Positions 4,186 through 22,672 of a stretch of 64,000 nucleotides of DNA are shown one piece after another. Below the pieces are notes generated by a model, which saw nothing but the letters and a program-made list of their open reading frames with translations, was not told the DNA's origin and did no database searches. Origin of the DNA: a virus; IMG/VR virus record IMGVR_UViG_3300037317_000025, positions 1 through 64,000 of that record; one strand, given 5' to 3'. The position numbers were made by a program, and so were the translations under genes. Every line of letters begins with the position of its first letter. The stretch's first letter is position 1.

Positions 4186-4267
4186 TTCCTTTCTGTATCA
4201 TCAATTCCTTATGTTCTTATTATAGCACACTGACAACACGGTGTCAATAGGTTTGTAGGGCATTTTT
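4186..4267 (-). promoter_or_regulatory. repeated sigma70 promoter/RBS cassette 1
   Basis: TTGACA(4247-4242)-17-TATAAT(4224-4219) with TG extension; downstream GATACAGAAAGGA. Confidence 0.85.
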
Positions 4268-4475
4268 ACGACGATTCTTCCCGCGCCATCGCCAGCGCCA
4301 GCCCAACCACCGCACCGACAATACCCCACAGCAGCCAGCTTCCCGCATTCGCCTTCGCCGCCTCGACCAGCCACACGAGCAGGCCGAACAGGATCGCGCC
4401 CCAGGTCGGCACCAGCAGGCCCAGGACGGCGGCGACAAAGATGGGCGCGAACAGCCAGTAGAGAATGCGCCCCAT
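4266..4475 (-). CDS. small membrane protein
   Basis: 69 aa, almost entirely hydrophobic. Confidence 0.6.
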   Translation of the reverse strand: MGRILYWLFAPIFVAAVLGLLVPTWGAILFGLLVWLVEAAKANAGSWLLWGIVGAVVGLALAMAREESS

Positions 4476-5401
4476 CAGCCTGCCCTCCGTGCTATCGCCG
4501 CCCGCGCCTTCGCCGCCTGCGCGTGGTTCTCCGGGTCGCCCAGGTCGAACGCATCCACGCGCAACCGATAGCGCATGCCGATGCCGCTGCGGTTGTCCTC
4601 TAGCGAGAGCACGCCCGACACGAACACCGGGTCGCCTGGGTGCAGGGCGCTGGCTTCGCGTGCCAGCCCGTCGTAGGTATAGACGGTGAACAGGCTGTCG
4701 CCGCTCACGATTGTCAGGATGGCAACGTCGCGCCCGTCGCTCGTCGTGTCCTGCCGGGGCGGGTGTTTCAGCGTGCCCGACAGCGACAGCACGTTCAACG
4801 TCTGCGACTGGCGGGCCTCCTGCCAGCGCCGCTCTAGCGTGAGCCAGTCGGTATCCAGGCGCACGAACGCCGTGTCGCCCCGGCGCTCGACGGACGGCTG
4901 CGGGTGGCCGGGTTCGATCACCACCTGATCGCCTGTATAGACCGTGATGAGCTTATGCACGATCTCGCCCGACAGGTGCAACCCGTAGCGCTGTCCGTCG
5001 CTCTCAATCGACAGCGTGCAGGTGTCCTGGGTGAAGTTGATATAAGCCACCGTGCCGATCAATGGGTCGTCGGTGGTATCCTGCGCCGCCTTGCGTGCCG
5101 TTGCGGGCGGTTGACTGACATAGCGAGCGTCTATGTAGAGCGTTGCCAGGTCGTCGCCTGTCTGCGGGTGCTGCCAGAGTTCCAGCCCCACGCGCCCTTC
5201 GACATAGACGACCTGCCCCTCGCGTATCCAGTCGGCCTCGTCCATCAGGTCGTCCATCAGGTCAAGCTGATAGACCTGCTCGACAGGCGAACCAGGGTCA
5301 ACGAGCTTGACCTTGACCGCCGGGGGTCGCCCACGGGCGCGGTAGGAACGCGGCTCTCTGGCAACCTGGCCGATGAACTGGAAGTGGTTTATGTCTGCCA
5401 C
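4475..5401 (-). CDS. single-stranded DNA-binding-like protein with tandem OB folds
   Basis: N-terminal INHFQFIGQVAREP...GQVVYVEGRV and C-terminal LNVLSLSGTLKHPP...LHPGDPVFVSGVL both resemble SSB. Confidence 0.6.
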   Translation of the reverse strand: MADINHFQFIGQVAREPRSYRARGRPPAVKVKLVDPGSPVEQVYQLDLMDDLMDEADWIREGQVVYVEGRVGLELWQHPQTGDDLATLYIDARYVSQPPATARKAAQDTTDDPLIGTVAYINFTQDTCTLSIESDGQRYGLHLSGEIVHKLITVYTGDQVVIEPGHPQPSVERRGDTAFVRLDTDWLTLERRWQEARQSQTLNVLSLSGTLKHPPRQDTTSDGRDVAILTIVSGDSLFTVYTYDGLAREASALHPGDPVFVSGVLSLEDNRSGIGMRYRLRVDAFDLGDPENHAQAAKARAAIARRAG

Positions 5402-5709
5402 GCCGCCACCTCGCTCTCAGTCCATTCCCACTGACATCGTAACCTTTGCAATATCATAACCTTTGCAATAACCAAAACAAAACCCCTTAATGCACAAGGT
5501 CAACTCATGGATGGTGAGTGTGCCATCAAAAGTGCAATGTACCCATTCCGTCGTACCATCGGCATCAAAACGGATATTAGTGCACCCTATTGTTATCATA
5601 AAATTCTCAAGCTGTTTCTGTCCGCTACTCTGCATATATGGCAACGGAATAGCATGAGAGGTCGATTTCCACAGTCTCACGCCGCTACCTCGCTCTCTGT
5701 CCATTCCCA
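5399..5709. repeat. 32-bp direct repeats (5399-5430, 5678-5709) flanking an AT-rich insert
   Basis: CACGCCGCYACCTCGCTCTCWGTCCATTCCCA, 30/32 identical. Confidence 0.8.
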
Positions 5710-6153
5710 TAGACCCTGCCTGCCCGTTGCCGGGATGGGCGGGTCAAGCGGACACACGTCGGCCAGGAGCCAGGCATAGCGGCCTGATGAGTAGTCTCCG
5801 AAGGCGCGTTCTCGATCATCCAGGCACCAAACATACCCGTTGGATACATACAGGCCATTATCAAATGGTGGCTGCGCAGATGGCTCAATATCAACCGTTT
5901 CAACCACATCCATCAGGATGCACGTTGCCACGATGACACCGCGTGGCAAGGCGTAGCCCTTGAGCGCCTGTGCGAAAACGTCGTCGTGATACAACGCCAC
6001 AAGCCCACGCTCGCCACCCACCGGCCCCAGCCCCTTGCCCGCGTGGATAGCGAGCGGGCCGCGATAGCGCGTGCTCCAGCTACGGGTTTCAATACGCTTC
6101 GCCCCTATCGCCACCAGCGTGGCGTAGGGCTGGGTGAGTGTTAATGCTTTCAT
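5677..6153 (-). CDS. ASCH domain protein
   Basis: MKALTLTQPYATLVAIGAKRIETRSW..YRGPLAIHA...ATGRQGLW is a typical ASCH signature. Confidence 0.85.
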   Translation of the reverse strand: MKALTLTQPYATLVAIGAKRIETRSWSTRYRGPLAIHAGKGLGPVGGERGLVALYHDDVFAQALKGYALPRGVIVATCILMDVVETVDIEPSAQPPFDNGLYVSNGYVWCLDDRERAFGDYSSGRYAWLLADVCPLDPPIPATGRQGLWEWTESEVAA

Positions 6154-6160
6154 GTGTTCC

Positions 6161-6349
6161 TCACATTTGTAATGGTGGCTCTTCGCCTGAGATGTCGAGT
6201 TCAATCCGACGCATTTTGATAGTAACTTCCGGGTTCTTGCGTGCGTCGCACGTATACTCAAAACCGACAAACCCTTCAACCTCTTCGCCTGTGTCTGTGT
6301 TCACCAACTTCAACCCATCCTCCGGCGTATAGACGATCTTCAGTCTCAT
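6161..6349 (-). CDS. hypothetical protein
   Basis: 62-aa ORF with AGGAGG RBS. Confidence 0.55.
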   Translation of the reverse strand: MRLKIVYTPEDGLKLVNTDTGEEVEGFVGFEYTCDARKNPEVTIKMRRIELDISGEEPPLQM

Positions 6350-6370
6350 GTCAACCTCCTTCGCATACTT

Positions 6371-7177
6371 TTACATACTCGCTTTTTCTTCCAGATACCG
6401 ATCCACGCTCGCCGCCGCATACCAGCCACGCCGGGACGGGTGGCGCTCGATCTTACCACGCTTCGCCAGACTGCCCACGAACTGGCGGCTCACGCCCAGG
6501 CGCTCCTGTGCCTCGTCCGTGGGGATGTACCCGGCCTCGCACAGCGCTGCCTGCTCGCGCTCCTGGCTGGCCTTCCAGGCGGCATGCTGCCGGGCTGCGA
6601 TGTCCTCCCGGTTGGCCGCGTAGTACGCACGGTCGTGCTCGCGCTTACCTTCCAGGTGGCACGCCTTGCATTCGGGTACGCGCTTCGTTCCGCCTGCGTA
6701 GCGATCTGCCCTGACGGTGTAATAGTCGTGCTCTGGCTTCGCCTGTCCGCACTTCGAGCAGACATACCAGAACTCGCCGCCCTCCGGCTCCGGGCCGTCC
6801 GGGTGCTGGCGCAGGTCGTGAACGTCCACAATTTCGCTCGCATCGACGACGGTGCGCCCGTCGCTGTCCAGTCGCGCCACGCGAACCGTGTTGCGCTCCT
6901 GGCGCATCCAGCCGAGCACCTGGACAGGAACCTGCTCCGCGTCCGTTGCTACCAGTGCCCGCTTGCCCGTCAACGCATCGACATCGACAGCAGACTGGCT
7001 GGTGTACCTGTCCACCGCCGCCGCGTCCACCGCCCACCGTTCATACGGCGCGCTGTCCATCGGCACCTTGCGGGCACGCAGTTCGCCGCGCCCGCACATG
7101 TCCCGAACCCGCTGCTCACTGTGTCCCAGGCGCTCGGCGGCCTGGGTGACGGTGAGTTCCTCGCGTGTGGTGGTCAT
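6371..7177 (-). CDS. excisionase-like HTH DNA-binding protein with central CxxC zinc ribbon
   Basis: LTVTQAAERLG..RVRDM..RGELRA; CSKC...CKAC; second HTH YIPTDEAQERLGVSRQ. Confidence 0.65.
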   Translation of the reverse strand: MTTTREELTVTQAAERLGHSEQRVRDMCGRGELRARKVPMDSAPYERWAVDAAAVDRYTSQSAVDVDALTGKRALVATDAEQVPVQVLGWMRQERNTVRVARLDSDGRTVVDASEIVDVHDLRQHPDGPEPEGGEFWYVCSKCGQAKPEHDYYTVRADRYAGGTKRVPECKACHLEGKREHDRAYYAANREDIAARQHAAWKASQEREQAALCEAGYIPTDEAQERLGVSRQFVGSLAKRGKIERHPSRRGWYAAASVDRYLEEKASM

Positions 7178-7178
7178 C

Positions 7179-7415
7179 TTAGTATATCTCCACTCCTGGC
7201 GGCGGTTCGTCGTGGACTTCATCAATGTCTATCAGATCGCTCACCCAGGCATTCCAGTTTGCTCGAATATCGTTTGCAGATAGTATGTGTGCACCGTTTA
7301 ACGCTCCGTCAGCCACCCTAAATCGTGGGCCGTCGTTTCTCATTTCATGCACTGACACTACTATGTACCCGACCGTCCCGTCGTCCCAATCCATTCTGAT
7401 CGCTGCGTTTGTCAT
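7179..7415 (-). CDS. hypothetical protein
   Basis: ORF with GAAGGGA RBS in the early-gene array. Confidence 0.5.
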   Translation of the reverse strand: MTNAAIRMDWDDGTVGYIVVSVHEMRNDGPRFRVADGALNGAHILSANDIRANWNAWVSDLIDIDEVHDEPPPGVEIY

Positions 7416-7476
7416 CTCATCTATCCCTTCTGTATCCGGCGGGCCGACCCATTGCCGACCCGCCTGCTGCTATCAC

Positions 7477-7749
7477 CTATGCCGCCGGGCCGTTGCGGTA
7501 GCCCATCGCCTCGACCCGGTACACCTCACCAGAGAGGTGCGTGAACGTCGGCTCCGTCGCCGTGTAGAACACGATGGCGCGGTAGACCAGTTCAACGTGC
7601 TGCCGGGTGATGGTCGCCATAATCGGCGCTTTCCAGTCGCGCCGATCCTTCACTGCGTTGAATGCCGCCTGAAGCTGCTGCTCGCTGAAGCCGTGGTAGG
7701 TGAAGCCGTCCTGATGCTGAATGCCGTTGGTGTTCGCTGTGATAGTCAT
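7477..7749 (-). CDS. hypothetical protein
   Basis: ORF with GAAAGGA RBS. Confidence 0.6.
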   Translation of the reverse strand: MTITANTNGIQHQDGFTYHGFSEQQLQAAFNAVKDRRDWKAPIMATITRQHVELVYRAIVFYTATEPTFTHLSGEVYRVEAMGYRNGPAA

Positions 7750-8150
7750 CGTGTGGTTCCTTTCTGTATCTCAATCTCGAATGTAGCTGGCTTGGCTGCT
7801 GCAATCCAGGAAGCATGCGCGGAGGCGATTGTCTCAGACCACACATCCGGCGCGAAGTCCATCAATGTGCCATCTGCGGTAAGAATGCGCGATGCCTGAC
7901 AGCTTGGGTAGTGCTCACCTGTTGACATCTGCTTGAAGGTGTAGGCCGAGAAATTCGCCACGCCTGTGAAGCTATTCATTGCCATCTGTACAACGATTGC
8001 GGTTGCGCTGTATGTCGCTGCGTCCGGCCTCGGCAGTGTGCCAGCAGGAAACCCTTTGGGGCCGTTCTTGCGGATGCGGCGATTGGCGCTCGCGGGTACG
8101 TCTTTGCGGTGCCCACCGTTCTGTCGATACTCTACCTGGCTGCGTCTCAT
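7746..8150 (-). CDS. hypothetical protein
   Basis: First gene after promoter cassette 2; GAAAGGA RBS. Confidence 0.55.
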   Translation of the reverse strand: MRRSQVEYRQNGGHRKDVPASANRRIRKNGPKGFPAGTLPRPDAATYSATAIVVQMAMNSFTGVANFSAYTFKQMSTGEHYPSCQASRILTADGTLMDFAPDVWSETIASAHASWIAAAKPATFEIEIQKGTTR

Positions 8151-8157
8151 CTCGTGT

Positions 8158-8252
8158 GTCCTTTCTGTATCCTTTATTCTTATACACTTATTATAGCACA
8201 CTGGTATTGCGGTGTCAATAGGTTTACCAGTGGATTTTGCAAGGAATTTGCC
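8158..8252 (-). promoter_or_regulatory. repeated sigma70 promoter/RBS cassette 2
   Basis: TTGACA(8218-8213)-17-TATAAT(8195-8190). Confidence 0.85.
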
Positions 8253-9014
8253 GCGCCTATCGGTTATTCTTGATCGTGGCCCTGCCGCCTGTCAGGTGAC
8301 AATCGAAGTCGCTCACCAGCCCGCCCAGCGCAGCCACCGAGCGCCGCGCCAGATCAGGTAGCCACACCTCGCGCACGCGCTGCCCCTGCCAGGTGGTGAC
8401 CGCGCCCAGGTCGCCGCCCTGCCGCCGCACCCAGGCCGCGACAATCGACATATGCTGGTCGCCTGCTGTCCACTGGCGAACCACAAACCCGTCGCGCTCA
8501 GGGTCTACGATGGTGTAGTAGCGCGGGCGCTGGCCGGTGCGTGGGCATCGGCGCGGGCCGTAGTGGTGAGTCAGGTAGTAGCACTTCACAGCGGCAACCT
8601 CAACTGCTGCGGCTGCTGTGCCTCGTCCTGCTCCCGATGGTAGCACCGCACGCAGAGCACGCGGTTGTCCTCAGTGATATGGATGTCCTGATCGCCCGTC
8701 CGCCCTGGGCCGTGTCGCCGCTCGATGCCGAGCGACTTCTGGCAGCGTGTACAGCGCCAGTGTCGATCCTGTCCAGTCGGCGCGCCGTGGCTGTGGTAGG
8801 CACTCATCGGGTTGGTTCCCTGCTGCTAAAATAGCGCAGCGCCGCTTGTGTGTGGCACGACTGACACACAATGCCCACGGCCTGAGCCGCCGGGATGTCC
8901 GGCATTGAATCCCCGCATTCGATGCAATACCCTGGCTTCCATTCCGGTTGGCGCGGCGCTGGGGTGATTGTGTTGTCTCTGATGCGCTGCGCCTTTGTTC
9001 GTCGTCCGCCTGGT

Positions 9015-9338
9015 CTAAATGGCACAATCTTCCCCCTTATGGTGTTTTTGCTGATGCACCAGGTCAAGCGCTTTGTTGCTGCCGATGCCCTCCGCATAGG
9101 GATGGCAGCATACCGTTTTGTTTGCATTCGTAGCAATCCAGCACTTTGGGTAGCCATAGAACATATGCTGTGGCGCGTCCCGATCTTCCAGGTAGAGCAC
9201 CAGGATCGCCGGTTGTTCGATGCGTTCGGTTACTGTCCAGCGATACGGCCCATGTATACACAAGCCAGCCGGTGTGAGATCGCCCACCTGAAGCGGCTCC
9301 AGCAGGCGATATAAGTCAACGGGTGTCATCTTCGGCAT
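9015..9338 (-). CDS. hypothetical protein
   Basis: AAGGAGG RBS before ATG 9338 (MPKMTPVDL...). Confidence 0.5.
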   Translation of the reverse strand: MPKMTPVDLYRLLEPLQVGDLTPAGLCIHGPYRWTVTERIEQPAILVLYLEDRDAPQHMFYGYPKCWIATNANKTVCCHPYAEGIGSNKALDLVHQQKHHKGEDCAI

Positions 9339-9359
9339 TACAGCCTCCTTTTCACGAAC

Positions 9360-9467
9360 AGTCGGGTCGTTGTCGATGCCTCCGACGGATTGATAGCCAG
9401 CAGCAGCCAGGCCGAGATCGGCAAGGCCGCCGCCAGCAAAGAGGGTAAGGCAGGTTGATTGTGCCAT
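9360..9467 (-). pseudogene. N-terminal fragment of a C5-cytosine methyltransferase
   Basis: LTLFAGGGLADLGLAAAGYQSVGGID = motif I (FxGxGG); the rest of the enzyme is absent. Confidence 0.55.
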
Positions 9468-9475
9468 AGGATACC

Positions 9476-10234
9476 TCACAGAAAGCACGTCCCTAGCCCA
9501 CACTGCCGATTGACACCACGATCCTCGCGGTCAATGTCGGCTTCCGCCAATGGCACGCGGTCACGATGCAACCAGAGGCGATCATCGTCTGCGGTGTCCA
9601 GCGGGGCAGCGTGGCGCAACTCCTCGTCGAGCTCAATCGCCGCCTGCCAGTCGTCCGGGTAGTTGTCGCGCAAATAGCGCCATTGCGCGTTGCCGCGATG
9701 CGGACACATCCAGCAGCTTGACTTGGGCGGCAAGGGCAACCCGGCCTGCTGGATCACCTGTTCGCAATCCTCGCGGGTGAGCATCAACTCAAGCAGGGGA
9801 TAGCGAATAGTCACCCACTTCTCGCTATCTTTCAGCGTAGCGCGGTGTCGCTCGTCCAACGTGAAGCCGATCCATATGTCAGCCTGTTGCACCCCCTGTG
9901 CCCGCAGCCAACGATTACGAACCCGCTTTTTCCACTCCACCGAGCAGTAGGTTCGCAACTGCCCCGTGCTGGTGTGCAACGGCATAAGTACATCGCCTTT
10001 GTGCGAGTACAGGTCAACCGTGCTCAGGTCGTGCGGCGCGATGTCCACGCGCAACCCGGCGCGATCCAGAAACGGTTGCATCACTTCGTCCAGATACTCC
10101 CATGTTGACGTGGCCTCGCGTCCGGTGTCTGCGATCACGATATAATCCGGGCGCGGCAACTTGCCAAGCACCACCAGGACACACATAGCGACGGATTGCA
10201 CACCGCCGCCGTAGCTAACAACCTGTTGTGTCAT
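9476..10234 (-). CDS. PAPS-reductase-like (PP-loop) protein
   Basis: VVSYGGGVQS, IADTGRE, CSVEWK, PPKSSCWMCP motifs of phage PAPS reductase family proteins. Confidence 0.75.
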   Translation of the reverse strand: MTQQVVSYGGGVQSVAMCVLVVLGKLPRPDYIVIADTGREATSTWEYLDEVMQPFLDRAGLRVDIAPHDLSTVDLYSHKGDVLMPLHTSTGQLRTYCSVEWKKRVRNRWLRAQGVQQADIWIGFTLDERHRATLKDSEKWVTIRYPLLELMLTREDCEQVIQQAGLPLPPKSSCWMCPHRGNAQWRYLRDNYPDDWQAAIELDEELRHAAPLDTADDDRLWLHRDRVPLAEADIDREDRGVNRQCGLGTCFL

Positions 10235-10244
10235 ATCATCGCTC

Positions 10245-10565
10245 TCAAATCTCTTCTAGCAGCCGCCACACGCGCTGCCGGACGGTGTGCCAATCTTCGC
10301 AGGTGAGCCAGCGCGAGGCGACCACCTCGTCGCCGGTAAAGTAGCCAGGGTGCGGCTCGTTCTGCCGCACGTTCGCGTAGTACCACGCCAGCCACACGCT
10401 GCCCGCGCCCGTGTCGGGGCCGTGATACACCTCGACCCAGGCGGCACGGGTGCCCTGTTCTACCACCTCGCAGTGGTAGAGATTGCGGGCTTCCCAATCG
10501 CCGTCTTGCAGGACGGTAGCAAAGTCAATGTCCGGGTGGGTGGCGTTGCCGTCGCAGGATGTCAC
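10245..10565 (-). CDS. hypothetical protein
   Basis: ORF overlapping the upstream stop codon. Confidence 0.5.
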   Translation of the reverse strand: MTSCDGNATHPDIDFATVLQDGDWEARNLYHCEVVEQGTRAAWVEVYHGPDTGAGSVWLAWYYANVRQNEPHPGYFTGDEVVASRWLTCEDWHTVRQRVWRLLEEI

Positions 10566-10969
10566 CGCATCACCTCCACTTTCGCCCGCTTAATCGCCTG
10601 CCCTGCCGTCTGATAGTAGCCATCCTGTATCTGATCACCTACCACCAGATAGAACAGGTTGCCGCCACCCAACGCCCTGCCGACCTTCGCCACGTTGCTG
10701 CCGAAGCGAACCTCAAACAACAGGTGTCCGCCCGGAAGCCGCTTCGAGCGGGGCGTGATGCCGTCGATCAATGGCGTAACCGTTGGTTGCGGGCCTGTCG
10801 GCTTCGACAGGCTATTGATCTTGCCGGTCAAAACGTGGATTTCCTGAGCGGCTGCGTTGATACCACCAATCATCCGCGCTGCCGGGTGCTTCTCACCACG
10901 CCTGCCGTACTGTGCCACCAGTTCGCGCTTGCGGGCGCGGTAATGCTTCAGAAGCTCTTTATCGGTCAT
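10562..10969 (-). CDS. hypothetical protein
   Basis: 135-aa ORF after an intergenic hairpin/RBS. Confidence 0.55.
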   Translation of the reverse strand: MTDKELLKHYRARKRELVAQYGRRGEKHPAARMIGGINAAAQEIHVLTGKINSLSKPTGPQPTVTPLIDGITPRSKRLPGGHLLFEVRFGSNVAKVGRALGGGNLFYLVVGDQIQDGYYQTAGQAIKRAKVEVMR

Positions 10970-11023
10970 CTCATCTATCCCCCAGGCAGGGCCAGCGCGG
11001 GCCGACCCTGCCGCTTATCGCTA

Positions 11024-11467
11024 TTAGGAACCATACCGAGGATGAAGCGCCCACGTACAGTCGTACCCAGCAAAGAAGCTCATCGCTTCCGCGCTGCTGG
11101 GCGCTTCGCCCTTGTACCCATTGTGATCCCACACCTGCCAGCCAACAGCCACCCCGTCCACGTCCCGGCGGCGGATAACGCCGCGCTGGAACAGACGACC
11201 AAACCAGACGTTCAGCTTGCCTTGTTCGTGCTCGTCCCATTCGGTGCGCAGGCGCGGGTGTTGTGTCTCCGGCACGCGATACTGTGGCGGGATGTCCTCG
11301 CCCTCCAGCACGCGGCACTGGTCGGGGCCGCAGATAGTGATGCGATTCGGGTGCGTCTCGCGGAACACGAACCGTCCGTCCATAAGGCGCTGCGCGTGGA
11401 AGATAGCGCCGTGAAGATCGGGGAGCCACCGGCGGTCGTCAATCTGGATTACTGCGTGTACGTGCAT
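11024..11467 (-). CDS. hypothetical protein
   Basis: ORF with GAAAGGA RBS after an intergenic hairpin. Confidence 0.55.
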   Translation of the reverse strand: MHVHAVIQIDDRRWLPDLHGAIFHAQRLMDGRFVFRETHPNRITICGPDQCRVLEGEDIPPQYRVPETQHPRLRTEWDEHEQGKLNVWFGRLFQRGVIRRRDVDGVAVGWQVWDHNGYKGEAPSSAEAMSFFAGYDCTWALHPRYGS

Positions 11468-11527
11468 TGTCTCTGTCCTTTCGGTATCAGGGGCCGGGCG
11501 CGGTGCTCGGCCCCGCTTGTCGTTGTC

Positions 11528-12157
11528 TCAGTCCTCATCCTTGAACAAGTCCGGGCGTTTCCGTGTGGCAAAACCAGGGAAAGCATTCTCGCGGGTAAGC
11601 TCTTCCTGGCGCGGTGGGAACAGTTCGTCCATTTCCGTCATTACCTGCTCGCGGCTCTTGCGCGGCACTTCGACCACCCGGCCCTGCTGCTGCGCATAGG
11701 CAGCTTCCAGTTCCGCCAGTTTGCGCTGCTGATAGACAATCTTCTGTTCAATCGCCGCCTTCTGTGCCTCATAGTCGCTGGCGGTCATCTGCGGCGCTTC
11801 GGGGGCGGCACTGGCGGGCTGCTCTCGCAGGGTCACACTCTTGCAGGACAACGCCTGCTGTGCTTCGTACATCCGAACCACCAGGCGCTTCGCGGCTGCG
11901 TGGGCGCAGGGCTTGCCGTGGGCTGCCGCCTCGCACGAGCACTGGCCGTTGACGGTGTAGCTACCCTTGCCGCTCTGCGAGGGGATGGTGGCCTCGCTGA
12001 TGCTGCCGTCCGGCGCGAAGGCGACCTTCACACTGTCGATACCCTTGAGGATGCCGAAGGCGCGGTCGAGGGCGCTGCGCCAGCGTGCGGGCATCTCGTT
12101 CTGTGCGGCCTGATTGTAGACTTCCGTGAGTTGCTTGAGGCTATAGTCGAAGTACAT
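11528..12157 (-). CDS. SWIM zinc-finger protein
   Basis: YTVNGQCSCEAAAHGKPCAH = CxC...CxH SWIM motif. Confidence 0.7.
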   Translation of the reverse strand: MYFDYSLKQLTEVYNQAAQNEMPARWRSALDRAFGILKGIDSVKVAFAPDGSISEATIPSQSGKGSYTVNGQCSCEAAAHGKPCAHAAAKRLVVRMYEAQQALSCKSVTLREQPASAAPEAPQMTASDYEAQKAAIEQKIVYQQRKLAELEAAYAQQQGRVVEVPRKSREQVMTEMDELFPPRQEELTRENAFPGFATRKRPDLFKDED

Positions 12158-12164
12158 CACGTTT

Positions 12165-12258
12165 TTCCTTTCTCTATCCGAATTCACTTATGTACTTATT
12201 ATAGCACACTGACATTGCATTGTCAATAGGTTTATAAGGGAATCCGGAGGGGATTTTT
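12165..12258 (-). promoter_or_regulatory. repeated sigma70 promoter/RBS cassette 3
   Basis: TTGACA(12226-12221)-17-TATAAT(12203-12198). Confidence 0.85.
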
Positions 12259-12262
12259 AGCC

Positions 12263-12739
12263 TTACCAGAGCGATGTTTGCACGGGCACTGTGCCGACAA
12301 GCTGACCAGCTCCGTGCTTGCTGCGAGTACACGTCGCATCCTCAAGCCAGCGCTGTGCTCGCAGGTTGCGCGCCCAGATGTTGACCAGTGTCAGGATGTC
12401 CCGCTGGGCGCGGGCGTTCCGGTGTGTGATCTCGCCGCGCTCGTTGACCTTTGCACAGACCGTGTATGCGCCGACCGGGTGCTGCGTGCATTCAACGGGC
12501 GACCAGCCCTCGACCGTGGTGGTCGAGAAGACGATCTCAGGATCGTACATCAGATCGCCATTTTGTACAAATGTGTGAGCCACCGCGACAATACCGGGTG
12601 CCAGCACTTCGATTCGGAGCCGCTGGAAGCCGTCCATATCAAACTGAAGATACGCGCCGGGGAGTGCCAGATCAACGCCTTCGCGCCGTGCCAACTGCTC
12701 AATTGCCTTCTTGAACGTCTTACTTGCTGCGATTGTCAT
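12263..12739 (-). CDS. DUF6908-like hypothetical protein
   Basis: AHTFVQNGDLMYDPEIVF motif. Confidence 0.55.
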   Translation of the reverse strand: MTIAASKTFKKAIEQLARREGVDLALPGAYLQFDMDGFQRLRIEVLAPGIVAVAHTFVQNGDLMYDPEIVFSTTTVEGWSPVECTQHPVGAYTVCAKVNERGEITHRNARAQRDILTLVNIWARNLRAQRWLEDATCTRSKHGAGQLVGTVPVQTSLW

Positions 12740-12786
12740 TGTGTTTCCTTTCGTTATCCGCCAATGGCTTCGTCTTATAGTATACA

Positions 12787-12918
12787 TGGTGGAGGCGGCG
12801 GGAGTCGAACCCGCGTCCCGAACGTTGGTGCCCTGGCGGGCTGGAGCGTTTCGCGGCTGGTTCTGTGCGCCTTCCCGCTACCGCGCTCCCCGTCGCCCGG
12901 TCGATACCGAGCGCCCCC
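12787..12918 (-). ncRNA. miniature tmRNA-like RNA (tRNA-like domain only, 132 nt)
   Basis: 5' GGGGGCG-CTC-GGTATCGAC-CGGGCG ... CGTTCGGAC-like GGAC-GCGGG-TTCGACT-CCCGC-CGCCTCC-A-CCA 3'; G3.U70 pair; stemless D-loop with GG..TCGAC, as in ssrA. Confidence 0.75.
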
Positions 12919-12935
12919 TTACGGCATGCGACGCA

Positions 12936-13148
12936 TCACCGCACTTTCTCAAAGAGCGCCACACACTCCAGTGGCGTCCATTCCGGCACACCGAAGAAGT
13001 ACCAGCCGCCTCCTGCCAACGGGCGCATCTTGTCCACTTTCGCCCAGGTGCGGGTATCGCGGGGCATTGTCGTAACCTCCACAATCTTGACGTGTACCAT
13101 GTCCGTCGCCCGCTCCATCGTGCCATCCGGGGTAATCTGCTCTGCCAT
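12936..13148 (-). CDS. hypothetical protein
   Basis: First gene after cassette 4; GAAAGGA RBS. Confidence 0.5.
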   Translation of the reverse strand: MAEQITPDGTMERATDMVHVKIVEVTTMPRDTRTWAKVDKMRPLAGGGWYFFGVPEWTPLECVALFEKVR

Positions 13149-13157
13149 ATCGGTATG

Positions 13158-13250
13158 TCCTTTCTGTATCATCAATTCCTTATACACTTATTCTAGCACA
13201 CTGGTAACACGGTGTCAATAAGTATACAAAGGAATTTTGAGGCAATTTTG
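13158..13250 (-). promoter_or_regulatory. repeated sigma70 promoter/RBS cassette 4
   Basis: TTGACA(13218-13213)-17-TAGAAT(13195-13190). Confidence 0.85.
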
Positions 13251-13310
13251 TCGATACCGATGGACTATTCCGGGCGGTCGTTCGCTGCTGTGACCACCCG
13301 GAAACGCTGG

Positions 13311-13619
13311 CTACTGAGAAATAATAAACCAGTCCCGTGGGGCCACAACGCCAATATCCAGAACCTTCACCACCAGGCCGGTCGTGTCGCGTGTGTTTAC
13401 ATACCGATGATAATCACTGTTGACCGCAAGGCCGATCATCCCTGGTTGTTCCGTTCCCCAGGCCCAGAACGGACTCCGGCTCTTGTCGTGCCAGACCTGC
13501 CAGCCAGGTACGTGGTCAAAAGCGGCGGCCATAATCTCCCGGATATACACCGGTGCTTGCTCGGTCACACCAGTAACATAGCCTATCGGGGTCGTTATGC
13601 GCGGGCTTACCTGTTCCAT
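13311..13619 (-). CDS. hypothetical protein
   Basis: ORF with GAAAGGA RBS after a hairpin. Confidence 0.55.
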   Translation of the reverse strand: MEQVSPRITTPIGYVTGVTEQAPVYIREIMAAAFDHVPGWQVWHDKSRSPFWAWGTEQPGMIGLAVNSDYHRYVNTRDTTGLVVKVLDIGVVAPRDWFIISQ

Positions 13620-13680
13620 ATCGGTAGTTCCTTTCTGTCATCTGGGGCCGGATACCACACCCGGCCCCGCTTGCTTATCC

Positions 13681-13992
13681 CTAGCCGATCATCCCTGTTA
13701 CGTAGTCCAGTGCCGCCTGTGCTGTGTCGAAAGCACCCGCGTGTGTGTCGCGGTGTTCGGGCGGGTCGTAGTAGCTCAGGCTGCCGATGAGCTGCCAGTG
13801 GGTGACGTGCCAGTCGCCGTCCTCCACCAATTCGTAGTAGTCCCGGCCTGCACCGCGCTCATAGATGACCAGCACATCGCCGTCAACCTCGCAATCCAGA
13901 CCCATCTCACCAGCGGCAGCACGGGCGGTTTCCACCGGGTCGGTATCGCCCTCTTCGGGTGTATCCAATATAACCTGTGTGCGCGTTTCCAT
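13681..13992 (-). CDS. hypothetical acidic protein
   Basis: First gene after cassette 5. Confidence 0.55.
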   Translation of the reverse strand: METRTQVILDTPEEGDTDPVETARAAAGEMGLDCEVDGDVLVIYERGAGRDYYELVEDGDWHVTHWQLIGSLSYYDPPEHRDTHAGAFDTAQAALDYVTGMIG

Positions 13993-14002
13993 TGCCTCGT
14001 GT

Positions 14003-14096
14003 TTCCTTTCGGTATCACTAATTTCTTATGTTCTTATTCTAGCACACTGGTATGGTAATGTCAATAGGTTTGTGAAGGAATTTTGAGGCAATTTTG
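14003..14096 (-). promoter_or_regulatory. repeated sigma70 promoter/RBS cassette 5
   Basis: TTGACA(14064-14059)-17-TAGAAT(14041-14036). Confidence 0.85.
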
Positions 14097-14155
14097 TGGC
14101 ATATCAAAGCCCCTGGCCGGGTACCAGGGGCGCGGACGGGCGGGCGGTTGCACCA

Positions 14156-14908
14156 CTATATCCATTCGTAGCGCGAGTCGAAGTAGGCGACCGTTTGCCC
14201 GGTCGTGCTCGCGTCCGCGTGAATCCAGTAGAACTTATCACCCTTAAAGCTCATCTCGGCAAGAGCGACCCATTCGTCCAGGTCGCGCCCGCTCAGGCGA
14301 TCTTGATCCAGATAGGCACGAACAAAGCTCTCCAGTGAATCGGCCTCGACCCGGCATGCCCAGAGCCACGCCCGCCCGTGTTCGTCCCGTTCCAGGCAGC
14401 GATACGGAACGGCGGGTTCCACATATACATACGCGACGACGTGCTCATCATTGTGCAGGCTGTAGCCAGCGCAGGTGTCCAACAGCACGGCGGTCGTGTC
14501 GCTGGCAAACAACCGCAGGATGCCGTTCATCTCTTGCTGGCTGGCAACGGCGAACGATGCGGGGTCGTGGTGATACGCCGCCGCACCCTTGTCGCGCAGC
14601 CAGGTAAACCGCCGATAGGTAGCGACATCTACTCGCGTGTACCCAGGGCGCGGGCCTGTTGCCAGCGCCGTGTGACCGCTCATGTAGTTTATCAGGTGCC
14701 AGGTTTTATGGTCGTACATGCTTATTGTCGGCGCATCCGGCTCCGGGTCACTAAACATATCCACCGTGGGCGCGTCCGGCTTCGGATTGACTTCGGGCAT
14801 GAACGGGCTGTCGCTGCCCGTTGCGGGCGTGCCACTGAACAGGGGCAGGTCGTCCGTGCCGAACATAGTTCCGGCTGCCAGGGCTTGCTTTTGCTTCTTG
14901 CGTGTCAT
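14156..14908 (-). CDS. hypothetical protein
   Basis: 250-aa ORF with GAAAGGA RBS. Confidence 0.6.
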   Translation of the reverse strand: MTRKKQKQALAAGTMFGTDDLPLFSGTPATGSDSPFMPEVNPKPDAPTVDMFSDPEPDAPTISMYDHKTWHLINYMSGHTALATGPRPGYTRVDVATYRRFTWLRDKGAAAYHHDPASFAVASQQEMNGILRLFASDTTAVLLDTCAGYSLHNDEHVVAYVYVEPAVPYRCLERDEHGRAWLWACRVEADSLESFVRAYLDQDRLSGRDLDEWVALAEMSFKGDKFYWIHADASTTGQTVAYFDSRYEWI

Positions 14909-15440
14909 CTCTCGTGGTTCCTTTCTGGTATCCGAGGGCGGGCGCGGTGCCCGCCTCGCTTGTCGCTGCCGATTATTCCAACCCTACCCGCTCGCCGCCG
15001 ATCTCGCTATCATAAACCTCCCAGCGACAGCCCTGGTTGAATGCCGAAACCAGTTCGTCATAGTAGGCCGGGTCTTCCTGGTAATAACTCACCTGCGGGC
15101 ACGCCACCAGCGCCGGGTTATCGCGGTCAATCCAGCCCGTGCTATCGCGCACCACGGTGATCGCTGCGCCACCGTGCCGATAGATAGCGCGATGAAAAGC
15201 AGATGGCGGTTCGACCCAGGTGAAAGGTGCCACCTGTACCTTGCGCGGCTTGCCAGCGCTGTGGCGGGTGCGCTTCGTTGACCCCTTGACCGTTCGCTCG
15301 CTGCTGGGCAGGAATTGCCCGCCGTCGTAGTGCTCTCCGTTCTTGCCTGTGGTGCCGCCCCTGGGTGCTCGTGTAGTCATCTCTCGTGTTTCCTTTCTGG
15401 TATCCGAGGGCGGGCGCGGTGCCCGCCCTCGCTTGTCGCT
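14904..15440. repeat. near-identical ~63-bp intergenic hairpin/RBS repeats (about 14904-14967 and 15376-15440)
   Basis: GTCATCTCTCGTGKTTCCTTTCTGGTATCCGAGGGCGGGCGCGGTGCCCGCC(C)TCGCTTGTCGCT in both copies. Confidence 0.85.
14973..15380 (-). CDS. hypothetical protein
   Basis: ORF bounded by the two hairpin repeats. Confidence 0.6.
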   Translation of the reverse strand: MTTRAPRGGTTGKNGEHYDGGQFLPSSERTVKGSTKRTRHSAGKPRKVQVAPFTWVEPPSAFHRAIYRHGGAAITVVRDSTGWIDRDNPALVACPQVSYYQEDPAYYDELVSAFNQGCRWEVYDSEIGGERVGLE

Positions 15441-15447
15441 ACTTACA

Positions 15448-15630
15448 CTACCGACCGAGCAATCGGGCGTACTTCTCTGTGGCGGCCTGCATAATAGCAG
15501 ATATCAGAGCTTTCCTGTCCTGGTTCGTGTCGATACCATACACTGCGGCGCGCTGGCGAAGCTCCTCATCAGACAATTCCTTCAATCCGAACGTTTCCTG
15601 GTGGTGAGCAATCTGAATAGCTTCAAACAT
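15448..15630 (-). CDS. small helical protein (possible Rho-N/SAP-like)
   Basis: LKELSDEELRQRAAVYGI...RKALISAI; first gene after cassette 6. Confidence 0.45.
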   Translation of the reverse strand: MFEAIQIAHHQETFGLKELSDEELRQRAAVYGIDTNQDRKALISAIMQAATEKYARLLGR

Positions 15631-15639
15631 TGTCGTGTG

Positions 15640-15732
15640 TCCTTTCTGTATCATCAATTCCTTATGTATCTATTATAGCACACTGACATTATAATGTCAA
15701 TAGGTATACCAGGGAATTTTGAGGCAATTTTG
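15640..15732 (-). promoter_or_regulatory. repeated sigma70 promoter/RBS cassette 6
   Basis: TTGACA(15700-15695)-17-TATAAT(15677-15672); contains the perfect palindrome TGACATTATAATGTCA. Confidence 0.85.
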
Positions 15733-15750
15733 CCGACGCAACGCGCTATT

Positions 15751-16209
15751 TTAGAACAGCGATAATTGTTCTACCACGGGCGCGGGCGCGGCGCTGGTAC
15801 CTTTCGGGGCACTGCCAGGGTACAGGTGCTCGACCGTTGCGCCCAGCGCGTCTGCCAGGTCGTGCGCGGCAGTCGTGCGGTGGCAGGTGTGGTGATCACG
15901 GCAGCCGCACAGCAGCACCACGGGGCGCTCGGCGAGGATGGGAGCCAGCGCCGCAACGCCTGCCTGGGCATTGACCAGCTTGATCGGCCCGCCGTTCTTG
16001 TAGTTCTCGTTGCCGAGCGCCTTCAGGTGCCGGTAGCTGCCAGCGCCGACCAGCTTTGCCAGGTTGCCGCCCGCCCATTGCGGCTGGCGCGAGCGGGGAC
16101 TGAAGCGCACGTCTACCAGTATTGCGCCGAGGGCGTGGATCGTGTCGCGGAGTTGCTCTGGTTTCCAACCGCTATAGCCAATGGTGTAAATCGTGTGTGT
16201 CGTGTGCAT
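15751..16209 (-). CDS. DUF488 family protein
   Basis: IYTIGYS, LVDVRFSPRSR, YRHLKALGN, LLCGC...CHR motifs. Confidence 0.8.
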   Translation of the reverse strand: MHTTHTIYTIGYSGWKPEQLRDTIHALGAILVDVRFSPRSRQPQWAGGNLAKLVGAGSYRHLKALGNENYKNGGPIKLVNAQAGVAALAPILAERPVVLLCGCRDHHTCHRTTAAHDLADALGATVEHLYPGSAPKGTSAAPAPVVEQLSLF

Positions 16210-16265
16210 TGTCGCTATCCTTTCCTGTGGGCGACCCAGACCAGCCAGGTCGCCCGGTTCGTTGC

Positions 16266-16484
16266 TTAGTGGTAACACTTACCGTATCGTTTACTATGAC
16301 CCGCCTGCGAGGCCGTGACGTGCGCTTGCTGGCAATTCGGGCAGACAACCAGATGGGTGCGGGGCGCGGGGCGGGCGGCTTCGCGCTGGCGGTCGATCTC
16401 AATCTGTGCGAACATCGGAAGGTCAAGCAGGTTGTGCCCACCGCCGTCTACCTTCACGCCTGCCCGCTCAAACATATCATTCAT
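16266..16484 (-). CDS. hypothetical protein (CxxC)
   Basis: First gene after cassette 7. Confidence 0.45.
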   Translation of the reverse strand: MNDMFERAGVKVDGGGHNLLDLPMFAQIEIDRQREAARPAPRTHLVVCPNCQQAHVTASQAGHSKRYGKCYH

Positions 16485-16491
16485 CGTTCTG

Positions 16492-16584
16492 TCCCTTCCG
16501 TATCACTAATTTCTTATGTTCTTATTCTAGCACACTGGTATGGTAATGTCAATAGGTTTATAAGGGAATTTTGCAAGGAATTTG
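16492..16584 (-). promoter_or_regulatory. repeated sigma70 promoter/RBS cassette 7
   Basis: TTGACA(16552-16547)-17-TAGAAT(16529-16524). Confidence 0.85.
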
Positions 16585-16641
16585 CCGCCACAAAAGGCAA
16601 TTCGCGCCCCTGGTGTCAGGTTGCACCAGGGGCGCGGGCGG

Positions 16642-17505
16642 CTACATCGCTGCGTAATTCGCCTTGACCAGTTCGTCTAGTAAGGTGCTGACTGCGAGTG
16701 CCTCATCGCCAAGACCAGCGTCCTCTAACTGCTGCATATAGGCCAGCAATACCTTTGCAGTGCCGCCCTGCTTCACTTCCATGCTGGGCATTTTGCCGTT
16801 GCGGCGCAACCCGGTTGCGCGCTGCGTGCGCTTGCCCTTGCTCTCCAGTTCCGCCACTTTCTCGCGGCTATAGGCTTCCAGGTCAAACATTGCGGGCTGA
16901 TCCTGGATAGCCTGCAATTCGCCGACCATCGCCCGAAACTTGCGCAGCGGCGGCATTCCGGCGGTATCGTTCAAAATCTTCACCGCCTGAGTCTGATAGT
17001 ATTCCGACAGCCCGGTCATTGCTTCCGCGTGGCCGATAGGCAGCGCGCCGCTCGTAACCATCTTGCGCACGTCGTCAACCAGCGCCAGCAGGCCGACACG
17101 CTTCTGGACATACTCTTTACTCTTGCCCGTCGCTTCTGCAATCTCTGCCGCGCTCATGCCGAAGCGCTCAATACGCTCCTGGTACGCTGCCGCCTCTGCC
17201 ATCGGGTCAAGGTCAACCCGGTTCACGTTCTCAACCAGCATAATGGTGCTGGCCGCTTTGTCGTCCAGTTCCCGCACGATGGCCGGTATCTCTGTCCATC
17301 CGAGCACGTCCCGGCAGGCGCGGGTGCGGCGTTCGCCAGCGACAATCTCCAGACGACCGTCGGGCAGCGGACGGTACGTGGGCGGCTGTGCAAGGCCGTC
17401 GCGCTGAATGCTTGCGGCTAGTTCCTCAAGTTCCTGCTGATCGAATGCCCGACGGTCGTTGTTGCCTGCGATGACCTGTGAGAGTTTGACGTTCGTGATT
17501 TCCAT
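16642..17505 (-). CDS. ParB/Spo0J-like protein
   Basis: LEELAASI..DGLAQP, EIVAGERRTRA, LVENVNRVDLDPMAEA, followed by an HTH. Confidence 0.85.
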   Translation of the reverse strand: MEITNVKLSQVIAGNNDRRAFDQQELEELAASIQRDGLAQPPTYRPLPDGRLEIVAGERRTRACRDVLGWTEIPAIVRELDDKAASTIMLVENVNRVDLDPMAEAAAYQERIERFGMSAAEIAEATGKSKEYVQKRVGLLALVDDVRKMVTSGALPIGHAEAMTGLSEYYQTQAVKILNDTAGMPPLRKFRAMVGELQAIQDQPAMFDLEAYSREKVAELESKGKRTQRATGLRRNGKMPSMEVKQGGTAKVLLAYMQQLEDAGLGDEALAVSTLLDELVKANYAAM

Positions 17506-17514
17506 ACCAGTGTT

Positions 17515-17606
17515 TCCTTTCTGTAATCCTTTATCCTTATGTACTTATTATAGCACACTGGTATGGTGATGTCAATAGGTTTTGAGGGCAATTTGAGGCG
17601 ATTTTG
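17515..17606 (-). promoter_or_regulatory. repeated sigma70 promoter/RBS cassette 8
   Basis: TTGACA(17575-17570)-17-TATAAT(17552-17547). Confidence 0.85.
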
Positions 17607-20591: not shown

Positions 20592-21125
20592 ACCGCGCAT
20601 TGACCATTGCAACGCCAGTGCAGCCCAGGACATCGGCGCTCATCATCCTCTTGCACCCTGCTCAACCGCGCGTTGACCATTGCAACTTAGTCCTGGCGGC
20701 GGGTGGTACAGTTGTACCATTGCCCTTGCACCCTGCTCAACCGCGCATTGACCATTGCAACGTCGGGCTGTGACCTCATAGCGTTGCGTGTACTTGTTCT
20801 TGCACCCTGCTCAACCGCGCATTGACCATTGCAACAACAATGAAGGCGCTGCTGCAGGAGCACGACGAGCTTGCACCCTGCTCAACCGCGCATTGACCGT
20901 TGCAACGTGATGAGTTCCAGTCCTGGCTGATCCTCATTATACTTGCACCCTGCTCAACCGCGCATTGACCATTGCAACTGCTGCTGCTGATATACACAGG
21001 CTTGCCCAGGAAGCTCTTGCACCCTACTCAACCGCGTGTTGACCATTGCAACATATGTTTGACGATTGCAACGATGCTCACAACTCTCCTTGCACCCTGC
21101 TCAACCGCGCATTGACCATTGCAAC
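20592..21125 (-). CRISPR. CRISPR array: 7 full 37-bp repeats + 1 truncated trailer repeat, 7 spacers (34-38 bp)
   Basis: Repeat GTTGCAATGGTCAATGCGCGGTTGAGCAGGGTGCAAG (minus strand) at 21089-21125, 21016-21052, 20942-20978, 20870-20906, 20799-20835, 20725-20761, 20650-20686; 22-bp remnant at 20592-20613; spacers are unique. Confidence 0.97.
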
Positions 21126-22591
21126 TCGTCAAACATATGTAGTTGATACAGAGTCGAGTGTTCAGATGTGTTCTGCACATCAGTCGGGGATGGCACCCCG
21201 CGCTCACTCGTTGAGGCGTGCGCCTCTTCGCAGTTCACAGGCGTACTAGCAGACCGTTCCGCCTCCCTGCGCACGTCACTTGGGGCATTGCCCCGCGCAA
21301 CCTGCCCGTTGCACACGGGTGTCTCTGGATAGTGTTTCGCGTTCGCTCGGTTGCCAATATTCCGAGCGGCGTTGATGTCTCTATCGTGTTCAGTTCCGCA
21401 CTCACCGCACTTCCAGGCGCGGGTGCGAAGCTCAATCTTGCGCGGCGATTTCACCCCGCAGGCGCTACAGGCTTGCGTGGTGTTGGCTGCGTCCACTTCG
21501 TAGTATGCGCGACCTGCCGCTTCGGCCTTCTCTTTGATCTTCTGGCGCAACTTGCCAGGGGCGGCGCTTTGCATCGACTTGTTGAGCGAGCGCTTCAGCT
21601 TGCGCCCCCGGTGCTTGTAGCGCTTGCCATTCTTGCGCTTGGCTTTGGTCATGTGCGCAAAGTTGATGTCCTCGACGCCAATGGTGTCAGCCGTGTCCAC
21701 AATGCGCTTTGCAATGTAGTGCTGCTGGTGATCGCGCTTGCGCGTGGTCTTCTGATGGAGCTTTGCAATACGCGCCCGCCGCCGCTTCGTGCGGTTGCTG
21801 TTCGGATCGGCCTTCTTGCCCGCGCCCCTGGTTTTGCGCTTCGGTGCGACCAGGCGCTCCAGGACACGCTTGCGTTTCTCTAGCTTACGGATGCTATCAT
21901 CCTGGCTATAGGTGCGCCCATCCGACAGCGCGGCGACATCCTGCGTGTCGCCACGGTGCTTGCAGTTCAGGTCAACGCCTACCGTCTTGCCTGTCTCTGG
22001 CAACGGTTCCGGCTCTGGCACCTCGCAGCTAAACGAGATATACCAGTCGTTTTTCACGCGAGTGATATGCACCTGCTTGATAACCGCGTCGTCTGGTATG
22101 GCACGGTGCATGCGCACGCGCAAGTGTCCAAGTTTGCCCGCGCCCGCCAGTTGCCAGTAGGCATAGCGGCGGCTCTCTCCGACAATTCGCGTCCCTCGCT
22201 CGGAGCCGCGAAACGCCAGACCCAAATCAGCAGGCCGCTCCGCCCAGCGCGGATTGCCTGCCGGAAACCGCTTCGCCTTGATGTTGCGAAACATATTTTT
22301 ATAGGCAGTATCAACGCGCCCACTGATGCCAAAGTTGCCGCCCATCGTGTCAGCAGGCACATCGCGCCAGTGGACTATGGTTGCCCGCATGCGCGTGATG
22401 AACTTCCCCTGCGTGCCAGATGTGACCGTCGGCACATACCGCGCCTGCTGTTGCTTCAGCCGGTACGCATCGCGACGCTGCTGGATAAGCACGCGCTGCA
22501 CTTCCCAACACGCCTGCTGCCACGCCTCAAGCGTGCGCTGCTGGTCTGCGTTCGGATAGAGCCGGTATTTGTATGAGCGTGCTATAGTCAT
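21101..22591 (-). CDS. tnpB: CRISPR-associated TnpB-like/compact type V (Cas12-like) RNA-guided nuclease, ~496 aa
   Basis: RSYKYRLYPNADQ N-terminus; RuvC-I VGVDLN, RuvC-II IGVEDIN, Zn ribbon CSAC...CGEC, RuvC-III HDRDINAARNI; stop codon lies inside CRISPR repeat 1. Confidence 0.88.
   Translation of the reverse strand: MTIARSYKYRLYPNADQQRTLEAWQQACWEVQRVLIQQRRDAYRLKQQQARYVPTVTSGTQGKFITRMRATIVHWRDVPADTMGGNFGISGRVDTAYKNMFRNIKAKRFPAGNPRWAERPADLGLAFRGSERGTRIVGESRRYAYWQLAGAGKLGHLRVRMHRAIPDDAVIKQVHITRVKNDWYISFSCEVPEPEPLPETGKTVGVDLNCKHRGDTQDVAALSDGRTYSQDDSIRKLEKRKRVLERLVAPKRKTRGAGKKADPNSNRTKRRRARIAKLHQKTTRKRDHQQHYIAKRIVDTADTIGVEDINFAHMTKAKRKNGKRYKHRGRKLKRSLNKSMQSAAPGKLRQKIKEKAEAAGRAYYEVDAANTTQACSACGVKSPRKIELRTRAWKCGECGTEHDRDINAARNIGNRANAKHYPETPVCNGQVARGNAPSDVRREAERSASTPVNCEEAHASTSERGVPSPTDVQNTSEHSTLYQLHMFDELQWSMRG
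21126..21340 (-). ncRNA. putative omega/tracr-like scaffold RNA overlapping the effector's 3' coding tail
   Basis: Several hairpins; partial anti-repeat GCACGCCTCAAC (21221-21210); repeat-3'-like TGAGCGCGGGGTGCCA (21206-21191); boundaries uncertain. Confidence 0.5.
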
Positions 22592-22597
22592 ATAATG

Positions 22598-22636: not shown

Positions 22637-22672
22637 AGGGATAGCACAAACAAGATACAAGGTGAGGTTGAC

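Follow-up and report, generated by a model that had tools for sequence, protein, structure and literature searches.

A probable tag-less mini-tmRNA of a tailed phage with a structurally conserved two-hairpin middle

Almost all bacteria carry out trans-translation, which is being explored as a target for antibiotics, and phages encoding RNAs that could subvert or prevent it offer natural probes of the pathway. The idea of a phage tmRNA stripped of its message is not new: the form found in mycobacteriophage DS6A was described in 2009/2014 and is designated ‘TLD only’ (tRNA-like domain only) by Hudson, Lau and Williams (2014) (PMC4131195). According to these authors, a similar molecule strongly inhibits tmRNA whether it is chargeable or not, perhaps by titrating SmpB (PMC4131195), and the 2025 tmRNA database paper, in which the viruses surveyed were those of RefSeq only, likewise cites inhibition of endogenous tmRNA by the DS6A form in E. 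coli (PMC11915505). CDS-less tmRNAs are also described from organelles: those of jakobid and oomycete mitochondria co-occur with nuclear SmpB, and a role in dealing with incomplete mRNAs has been suggested for them; two such genes of ~65 bp are found in Mallomonadaceae plastids (PMC11915505).

The RNA analysed here is encoded on the minus strand (the preliminary description gave no strand) of the window, which covers the first 64 kb of an IMG/VR virus contig (75,346 bp; ~71% complete according to CheckV). It is very probably a tag-less mini-tmRNA of a phage. Its kind is known already from DS6A, and the RNA itself is a new, longer and structurally conserved variant. The contig comes from a tailed phage and encodes a portal, a tape-measure protein, a DnaB helicase, a sliding clamp, a DNA methyltransferase and a TnpB-like transposase. 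A 597-aa protein encoded at 21101-22894 (-) matches the PHROG ‘transposase’ family phrog_506 (5e-74). The features of the locus are collected in Table 1.

Table 1. Elements of the mini-tmRNA and of its promoter unit (window positions; RNA nucleotide p is window position 12919-p)
Feature	Position	Strand	Basis or remark
Promoter TTGACA-17-(TG)TAGAAT	13190..13218	(-)	11/12 hexamer matches, TG extension; sigma-70-type
70-aa ORF, first gene of the promoter unit	12936..13148	(-)	RBS AAAGGAC
Mini-tmRNA gene, whole RNA, CCA encoded	12787..12918	(-)	Rfam RF00023 56.9 bits, model 1-374; R1 141.9 bits
Acceptor stem 5' strand GGGGGCG, RNA 1-7	12912..12918	(-)	
P2 helix 5' strand CCGGGCG, RNA 19-25	12894..12900	(-)	pairs with RNA 95-101
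Hairpin A, RNA 30-76	12843..12889	(-)	folding and covariation
Hairpin B GCCC-GCCA-GGGC, RNA 78-89	12830..12841	(-)	folding; helix 6 covariation
P2 helix 3' strand CGUUCGG, RNA 95-101	12818..12824	(-)	
T-arm GCGGG-UUCGACU-CCCGC, RNA 105-121	12798..12814	(-)	Rfam alignment; 100% paired
Acceptor stem 3' strand CGCCUCC, RNA 122-128	12791..12797	(-)	pairs with RNA 1-7; includes U70
158-aa DUF6908 protein gene, downstream	12263..12739	(-)	Pfam PF21849 4.9e-18; phrog_9098
Next promoter TTGACA-17-TATAAT, end of unit	12198..12226	(-)	consensus match

A scan with tmRNA models and a search for homologues had been named in the preliminary description as checks on its assignment. The scan bears the assignment out: the RF00023 match spans the model from end to end (E 1.1e-19 in the 64-kb window), its score is above the gathering score of 47, and it is the sole match to this model across the 75-kb record. 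In the Rfam alignment 292 internal model positions are reduced to 53 nt. The tmRNA model wins the Rfam clan competition at this place, the tmRNA_permuted model scoring 31.2 bits (cut-off 47) and matching only the T-arm part, and the gene has the standard order and not the two-piece (permuted) one. Organellar CDS-less tmRNAs (RF02544), compared here via Rfam clan competition alone, have likewise lost the mRNA-like domain and kept the alanyl TLD, but they are mostly permuted, unlike the window RNA. When the RNA was scanned by itself against Rfam with permissive settings, nothing besides tmRNA and no known motif in the insert was returned, and ARAGORN did not detect the gene. BLAST matches of the RNA are limited to the 3' 32-45 nt that are generic to tRNAs and tmRNAs; for the flanks, BLAST against deposited phages gave no match.

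Both halves of the TLD are present in the RNA. Within the acceptor stem G3 pairs with U126, which corresponds to tRNA position 70 and completes the alanine identity pair G3.U70; the stem is followed by the discriminator A and the encoded CCA (RNA 129-132). The D-loop analogue CUCGGUAUCGA (RNA 8-18) is of the GG..UCGAC type and has no D-stem, and its columns as well as those of the T-arm GGGUUCGAnUCCC have posterior probabilities near 1 in the Rfam alignment. The 5' and 3' halves are joined by the covarying P2 helix (7 bp + 2 bp). Thus the termini with G3.U70, the stemless D-loop, the helix 2a-like pairing and the T-arm are all found as they had been described.

The acceptor stem, the D-loop analogue, the T-arm and the base of P2 are common to this RNA and the standard one-piece bacterial tmRNA (RF00023). 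The latter, however, is ~350-430 nt long against 132 nt, and the window RNA differs from it by the absence of PK1-PK4 (the interior folds as two nested hairpins), of the resume codon and tag ORF and of the stop in the helix 5 loop. The only stop triplet in any frame of the RNA is UAG at nt 39-41, and no stop triplet is present 3' of it, so that there is no normal resume-to-stop frame. The middle, previously given as ~75 nt, is indeed a short structured link between the P2 strands, but its length is 69 nt. The full-span RF00023 match and the lack of a tag frame support the conclusion that the RNA is derived from tmRNA and has kept the alanyl tRNA-like domain intact while the mRNA-like domain is missing.

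Relatives of the RNA with a middle of similar size are scarce. A pattern scan for tmRNA ends separated by 65-95 nt yielded 11 further viral contigs; the equal pattern with a gap of 95-125 nt gave 4, whereas the 35-65-nt gap pattern gave at least 119 matches in IMG/VR (80 unique sequences). The short form thus outnumbers the extended class about tenfold. True examples of the extended type were also found in bacterial bins (Saprospiraceae, Anaerolineae/Chloroflexota, CPR groups and others). Scans of viral and metagenome collections with the loop motif and the subtype added only three RNAs, L163, L164 and L165, all from metagenomes. The Thermaceae matches of the genome scan, as well as L016, L018, L019, L027 and L033, were rejected as false positives formed by tandem tRNA ends.

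The closest relatives of the window RNA are L012 and L164. Both share its loop motif and its internal loop, while the sequences of their stems differ and yet stay complementary; three fully compensatory pairs distinguish L012 from the window RNA. The covariance model R1, built on these three sequences, retrieves 27 related RNAs of 106-140 nt, which is the outcome of the homologue search mentioned above. In their alignment, which was fitted to R1 and therefore leans towards the structure, 92.7% of cells are paired compared with 46-57% for slid partners, and none of 500 shuffles reaches the observed pairing. Compensatory changes occur in all seven helices including the three interior ones: in helix 2 (P2; 91% paired) 6 of 7 pairs covary, in helices 4 and 5 (hairpin A; 88.8% and 84.3% paired) every pair shows two-sided changes, and in helix 6 (hairpin B; 86.5% paired) 4 of 4 pairs covary. 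The pairs G1-C72, G2-C71 and G3.U70 are invariant in all 27 extended RNAs. Independent folding with the tRNA-like ends alone constrained produced P2, hairpin A and hairpin B in most of the RNAs. The 69-nt middle is structurally conserved, with covariation.

Hairpin A consists of an outer helix (GGAGCG/CGCUCC) and an inner helix (GCGG/CCGC) separated by the loop-E-like internal loop CGGUA/GAAA, and is closed by an 18-nt terminal loop (GAAGGCGCACAGAACCAG) with the conserved motif AAGGCGCACAG. Hairpin B is missing from L012. In the closest relatives, and also in one environmental variant of the RNA, the internal loop has the form AGUA/GAA, which is the consensus of the loop-E (bulged-G) motif. 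A pseudoknot formed by the loop motif GGCGC was considered and rejected, as inspection by eye revealed no consistent partner across the relatives and the nested hairpin covaries. The loop motif also resembles the region of the PK1 3' strand (GGAGCACAC) of full-length Chloroflexota tmRNAs; homology was not accepted, the likeness being one of resemblance alone.

The internal loop houses the single stop triplet, and the RNA might be taken for a tmRNA with a micro-tag, i.e. with a short frame that ends at this stop and would add 1-4 residues without a degron before normal termination. Putative frames of this kind can be written as GCG-CGG-UAG in the window RNA, GCU-GGC-GAG-UAA in L012 and GGU-UAG-UAG in L164, so that within nt 33-43 all three closest relatives have a stop preceded by a Gly or Ala codon, and tags of two residues (Ala-Ala) exist in real tmRNAs (PMC11915505). 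Nevertheless, this reading is very improbable. The triplet belongs to the conserved (A/G)GUA/GAA loop, and its position in this loop-E-like element allows its conservation to be read as structural. The putative resume codon is located in a covarying helix, 8 nt after P2 and without an A-rich upstream element, and the more distant relatives (L006, L011 and the CPR RNAs) lack a stop at the corresponding position.

The short mini-tmRNAs of uncultured phages are TLD-only molecules of 78-80 nt which score 55-72 bits in Rfam. Their ends, the invariant U70 and an A-rich + GCCGCA-type motif that follows P2 are as in the window RNA, but hairpins A and B are absent. The existence of this form implies that the conserved insert is not needed for the basic design. 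What the rarer class adds to the short form is ~50 extra structurally conserved nucleotides.

The DS6A element (83 nt; JN698994 28478-28560, L174 979-1061; tmRNA Website tmID 11587) is found by R1 with 49 bits. Like the window RNA, it is phage-borne and combines a tRNA-like domain with G3.U70 and P2 without a tag frame. It has ~20 nt inside P2 with one small hairpin (GAAAACCGCACGCGGUAC), in contrast to the 69-nt two-hairpin module of the window RNA, and its Rfam score is below the gathering score while that of the window RNA is above. Accordingly, the window RNA shares with DS6A a phage-borne TLD with P2 and no tag frame, and exceeds the format of little more than a TLD (65-85 nt, one small hairpin in P2). 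The DS6A tmRNA is unannotated in GenBank record JN698994 and, together with its low score, this means that routine pipelines would miss it. Standard annotation in general misses mini-tmRNA genes, ARAGORN having found none.

The gene occupies the second place of a promoter unit. According to the preliminary description it closely follows promoter cassette 4 and the first gene of that cassette, and the arrangement is confirmed: the stop codon of the 70-aa ORF, which has no PHROG or Pfam match, is separated from G1 of the mini-tmRNA by 17 nt. The DUF6908 gene starts 47 nt past the CCA, and no terminator-like site was found within the unit, from its promoter to the next one. The sequence TTGACA-N14-TGnTAnAAT occurs in the window in 9 exact matches versus 0 expected by chance. 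Eight of the nine carry CAGTGTGCTA[T/G]AAT and belong to near-identical cassettes (4219-17575, (-)); the ninth is at 34065-34093 (-). The eight-promoter array, to which the promoter of the mini-tmRNA unit belongs, heads short operons of small unknown genes over ~4.2-17.6 kb. In this context the most likely source of the RNA is a polycistronic transcript that is strong and probably early, from which we infer its release by tRNA-type processing.

Such a placement bears on the possibility that the RNA is a non-functional relic, either a decayed captured ssrA gene or an attachment-site fragment, which the preliminary description had named as the outcome that would overturn its proposal. Integration of phages and islands into ssrA is frequent, and such elements bear the 3' end of this gene (PMC9004378); the 3' 32-40 nt of the window RNA do match many phage records in BLAST. 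We consider a relic highly improbable. The gene lies in a strongly promoted operon, its 5' and 3' halves are both intact and contiguous, its interior helices covary among the 27 RNAs and U70 is invariant (113/113, see below). No tyrosine or serine recombinase (integrase) is encoded in the 75-kb record, which together with the presence of both TLD halves makes an attachment-site remnant very unlikely.

Environmental variants of the RNA point in the same direction. The public runs listed for this stretch are tidal-flat metagenomes, with no RNA run among them. Contigs of four tidal-flat runs, all of them DNA contigs, were compared with the window, and whole-RNA copies of ~90% identity (12-13 differences over 12786-12921) were found in three of the four runs. 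These copies are conserved in other genomic contexts: the flanks are unrelated, and divergence from the window begins exactly at the two ends of the RNA. Of the differences listed, C73U and C95U are both opposite G and give G.U pairs, A94C affects an unpaired position, and G37A turns the internal-loop GGUA into AGUA, as in the relatives; G100A is also among them. Differences that are compatible with G.U pairing or confined to loops, combined with unrelated flanks, indicate a maintained modular gene rather than a decaying fragment.

Position 70, which was left free in the search patterns, is U in all 113 non-redundant mini-tmRNA matches, while the neighbouring acceptor pairs covary freely. This invariance implies purifying selection on the identity pair for AlaRS and argues that the RNAs are charged with alanine and, as is established for tRNA and tmRNA, delivered by EF-Tu. 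Because of the invariant U70, a charged tag-less competitor of the host tmRNA is favoured here over a passive SmpB sponge, although we hold this preference with no better than even confidence; the same invariance argues that a passive sponge would not be the whole story. In the favoured scheme RNase P and 3' processing would release the mini-tmRNA from the operon transcript, and host AlaRS would charge it with alanine. It would then become a rival of the host tmRNA for SmpB, EF-Tu and ribosomes stalled on non-stop mRNAs. Since the mini-tmRNA offers no message, a nascent chain transferred to it would gain at most one alanine and no degradation tag, and the net effect would be that host trans-translation tagging is diverted or blocked in early infection.

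Several observations stand against the charged competitor. The inhibition, as cited in the two papers, refers to the short TLD-only form in E. coli and is independent of chargeability, which fits a sponge better; by the same accounts an RNA of ~80 nt suffices for it, and the conserved extra ~50 nt are thereby left unexplained. Moreover, the extended architecture is the sole tmRNA-like RNA in six CPR genomes without SmpB (see below). The SmpB decoy suggested in the preliminary description has a published precedent in the TLD-only form, as cited in PMC4131195 and PMC11915505. With the alanine identity pair under strict selection across the family, the choice between sponge and charged competitor becomes a one-mutation question.

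The phage record contains no SmpB gene, and none of the four proteins flanking the window RNA has a homologue near any other mini-tmRNA. In an all-against-all comparison of ORFs within 3 kb of ~150 mini-tmRNAs only clusters from one phage lineage were obtained, and none of them included the window.

Productive rescue without a tag, also raised in the preliminary description, overlaps with the charged-competitor reading and differs from it in the outcome alone. The charged RNA with SmpB would accept the nascent chain, and the ribosome would be freed independently of a stop codon, either by drop-off of the peptidyl-tRNA followed by Pth or by ArfB-type hydrolysis on the empty A site; the gain would be free ribosomes without tagging and degradation of proteins. 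To our knowledge, none of the CDS-less tmRNAs has a demonstrated release mechanism. The invariant U70 and the frequently encoded CCA among the 113 matches are in accord with such a role, and the presence of full tmRNAs in many phages implies that rescue capacity is useful to them; CDS-less tmRNAs have moreover been kept along with SmpB in jakobid and oomycete mitochondria (PMC11915505). On the other hand, the single experiment reported for a TLD-only form showed inhibition and not rescue, and no ArfB- or Pth-like gene adjoins the RNA in the window (PHROG/Pfam). Productive rescue is therefore regarded as rather unlikely.

After its own subtype, the best matches of R1 are CPR RNAs of 133-136 nt in which the elements follow the same order as in the window RNA. 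One of them, L032 (73.9 bits) from a WWE3-type CPR bacterium, is 133 nt long and, as in the window RNA, its P2 is followed first by hairpin A, which has two tiers, an A-rich loop of 17-19 nt and a 3' RAAA bulge, and then by hairpin B. Unlike the phage RNA, it is chromosomal and the only tmRNA of the cell, in genomes without detectable SmpB. The AGUA/GAA loop and the CACAG loop motif are lacking in the CPR RNAs, L032 included, so that the homology of the insert is architectural only. The species of L032, ‘9FT-COMBO-53-11 sp001772805’, has been flagged as possibly devoid of a tag frame (PMC11915505).

A survey of 81 genomes sampled from the class of G004, with SmpB detected as PF01668, gave the following partition. 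SmpB is present in each of the 64 genomes that contain a full-length tmRNA, where it is often encoded beside the tmRNA gene, and none of the six genomes whose only match is a mini-tmRNA of 133-137 nt has it (G004, G006, G007, G008, G043 and G053, comprising loci L032, L017, L039, L031 and relatives). The genomes without a tmRNA match are divided into six SmpB-negative and five SmpB-positive ones, and a further search of five of these six SmpB-negative genomes with R1 revealed no mini-tmRNA in any of the five. This CPR lineage may have uncoupled a tmRNA relic from SmpB, which, if upheld in complete genomes, would be a rare case of tmRNA/SmpB uncoupling.

Since the CPR mini-tmRNAs occur without canonical SmpB, SmpB binding need not be the only role of the extended form. 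Taken to its end, this would make the architecture of TLD, P2 and hairpins A and B self-sufficient, the hairpin module doing the job of SmpB or of the message in rescue; alternatively, the RNA would be an anticodon-less carrier delivering alanine off the ribosome, e.g. for aminoacylation of cell wall or lipids. If true, phages such as this one would deploy a version with a loop-E-like module that binds a protein or the ribosome, and would thereby take over stalled ribosomes, beyond soaking up SmpB. The partition of SmpB in the survey and the rank of the CPR RNAs among the R1 matches favour this idea. The bins, however, are small, possibly incomplete and closely related, so that the mini-only, SmpB-less state of this one lineage probably reflects a single loss event; a divergent SmpB could have escaped PF01668; the two loop motifs of the phage RNA are not shared; and no candidate partner enzyme is encoded nearby. 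An SmpB-independent role, whether in rescue or in alanine delivery, is consequently thought to be improbable.

In other bacterial bins the mini-tmRNA is not the only one. Bins of Chloroflexota, Saprospiraceae, Berkelbacteria and Uhrbacteria contain a normal tmRNA of 386-427 nt and a mini-tmRNA on another contig; these accessory RNAs are 82-146 nt long (G001-G003 with L014, L023 and L036; G005 with L013; G009 with L034; G010 with L015; G045, G058 and G084), and bins of other CPR groups are among those that hold them. Some of them adjoin HNH endonuclease or PcfJ-like genes, which suggests that the mini-tmRNA is an accessory gene there, located on mobile elements or prophages.

Other RNA elements were encountered near mini-tmRNA genes. 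In the viral contig L160 an 81-nt TLD-only mini-tmRNA lies inside an array of ~20 tRNA genes (9630-11609, (-)); in contrast, the window contains no canonical tRNA gene. It does contain a second tRNA-like RNA at 3178-3343 (-), with the acceptor stem GGAAACUG/CAGUUUCC, a good T-arm and an encoded CCA, in which ~90 nt stand in place of the anticodon loop and no G3.U70 is present; its Rfam tRNA score of 19.8 bits is below the cut-off and ARAGORN misses it. In the viral contig L124 six type II hammerhead ribozyme matches (40-55 bits, ~400-600 nt apart; 9828-12349, (+)) are situated upstream of its 102-nt mini-tmRNA.
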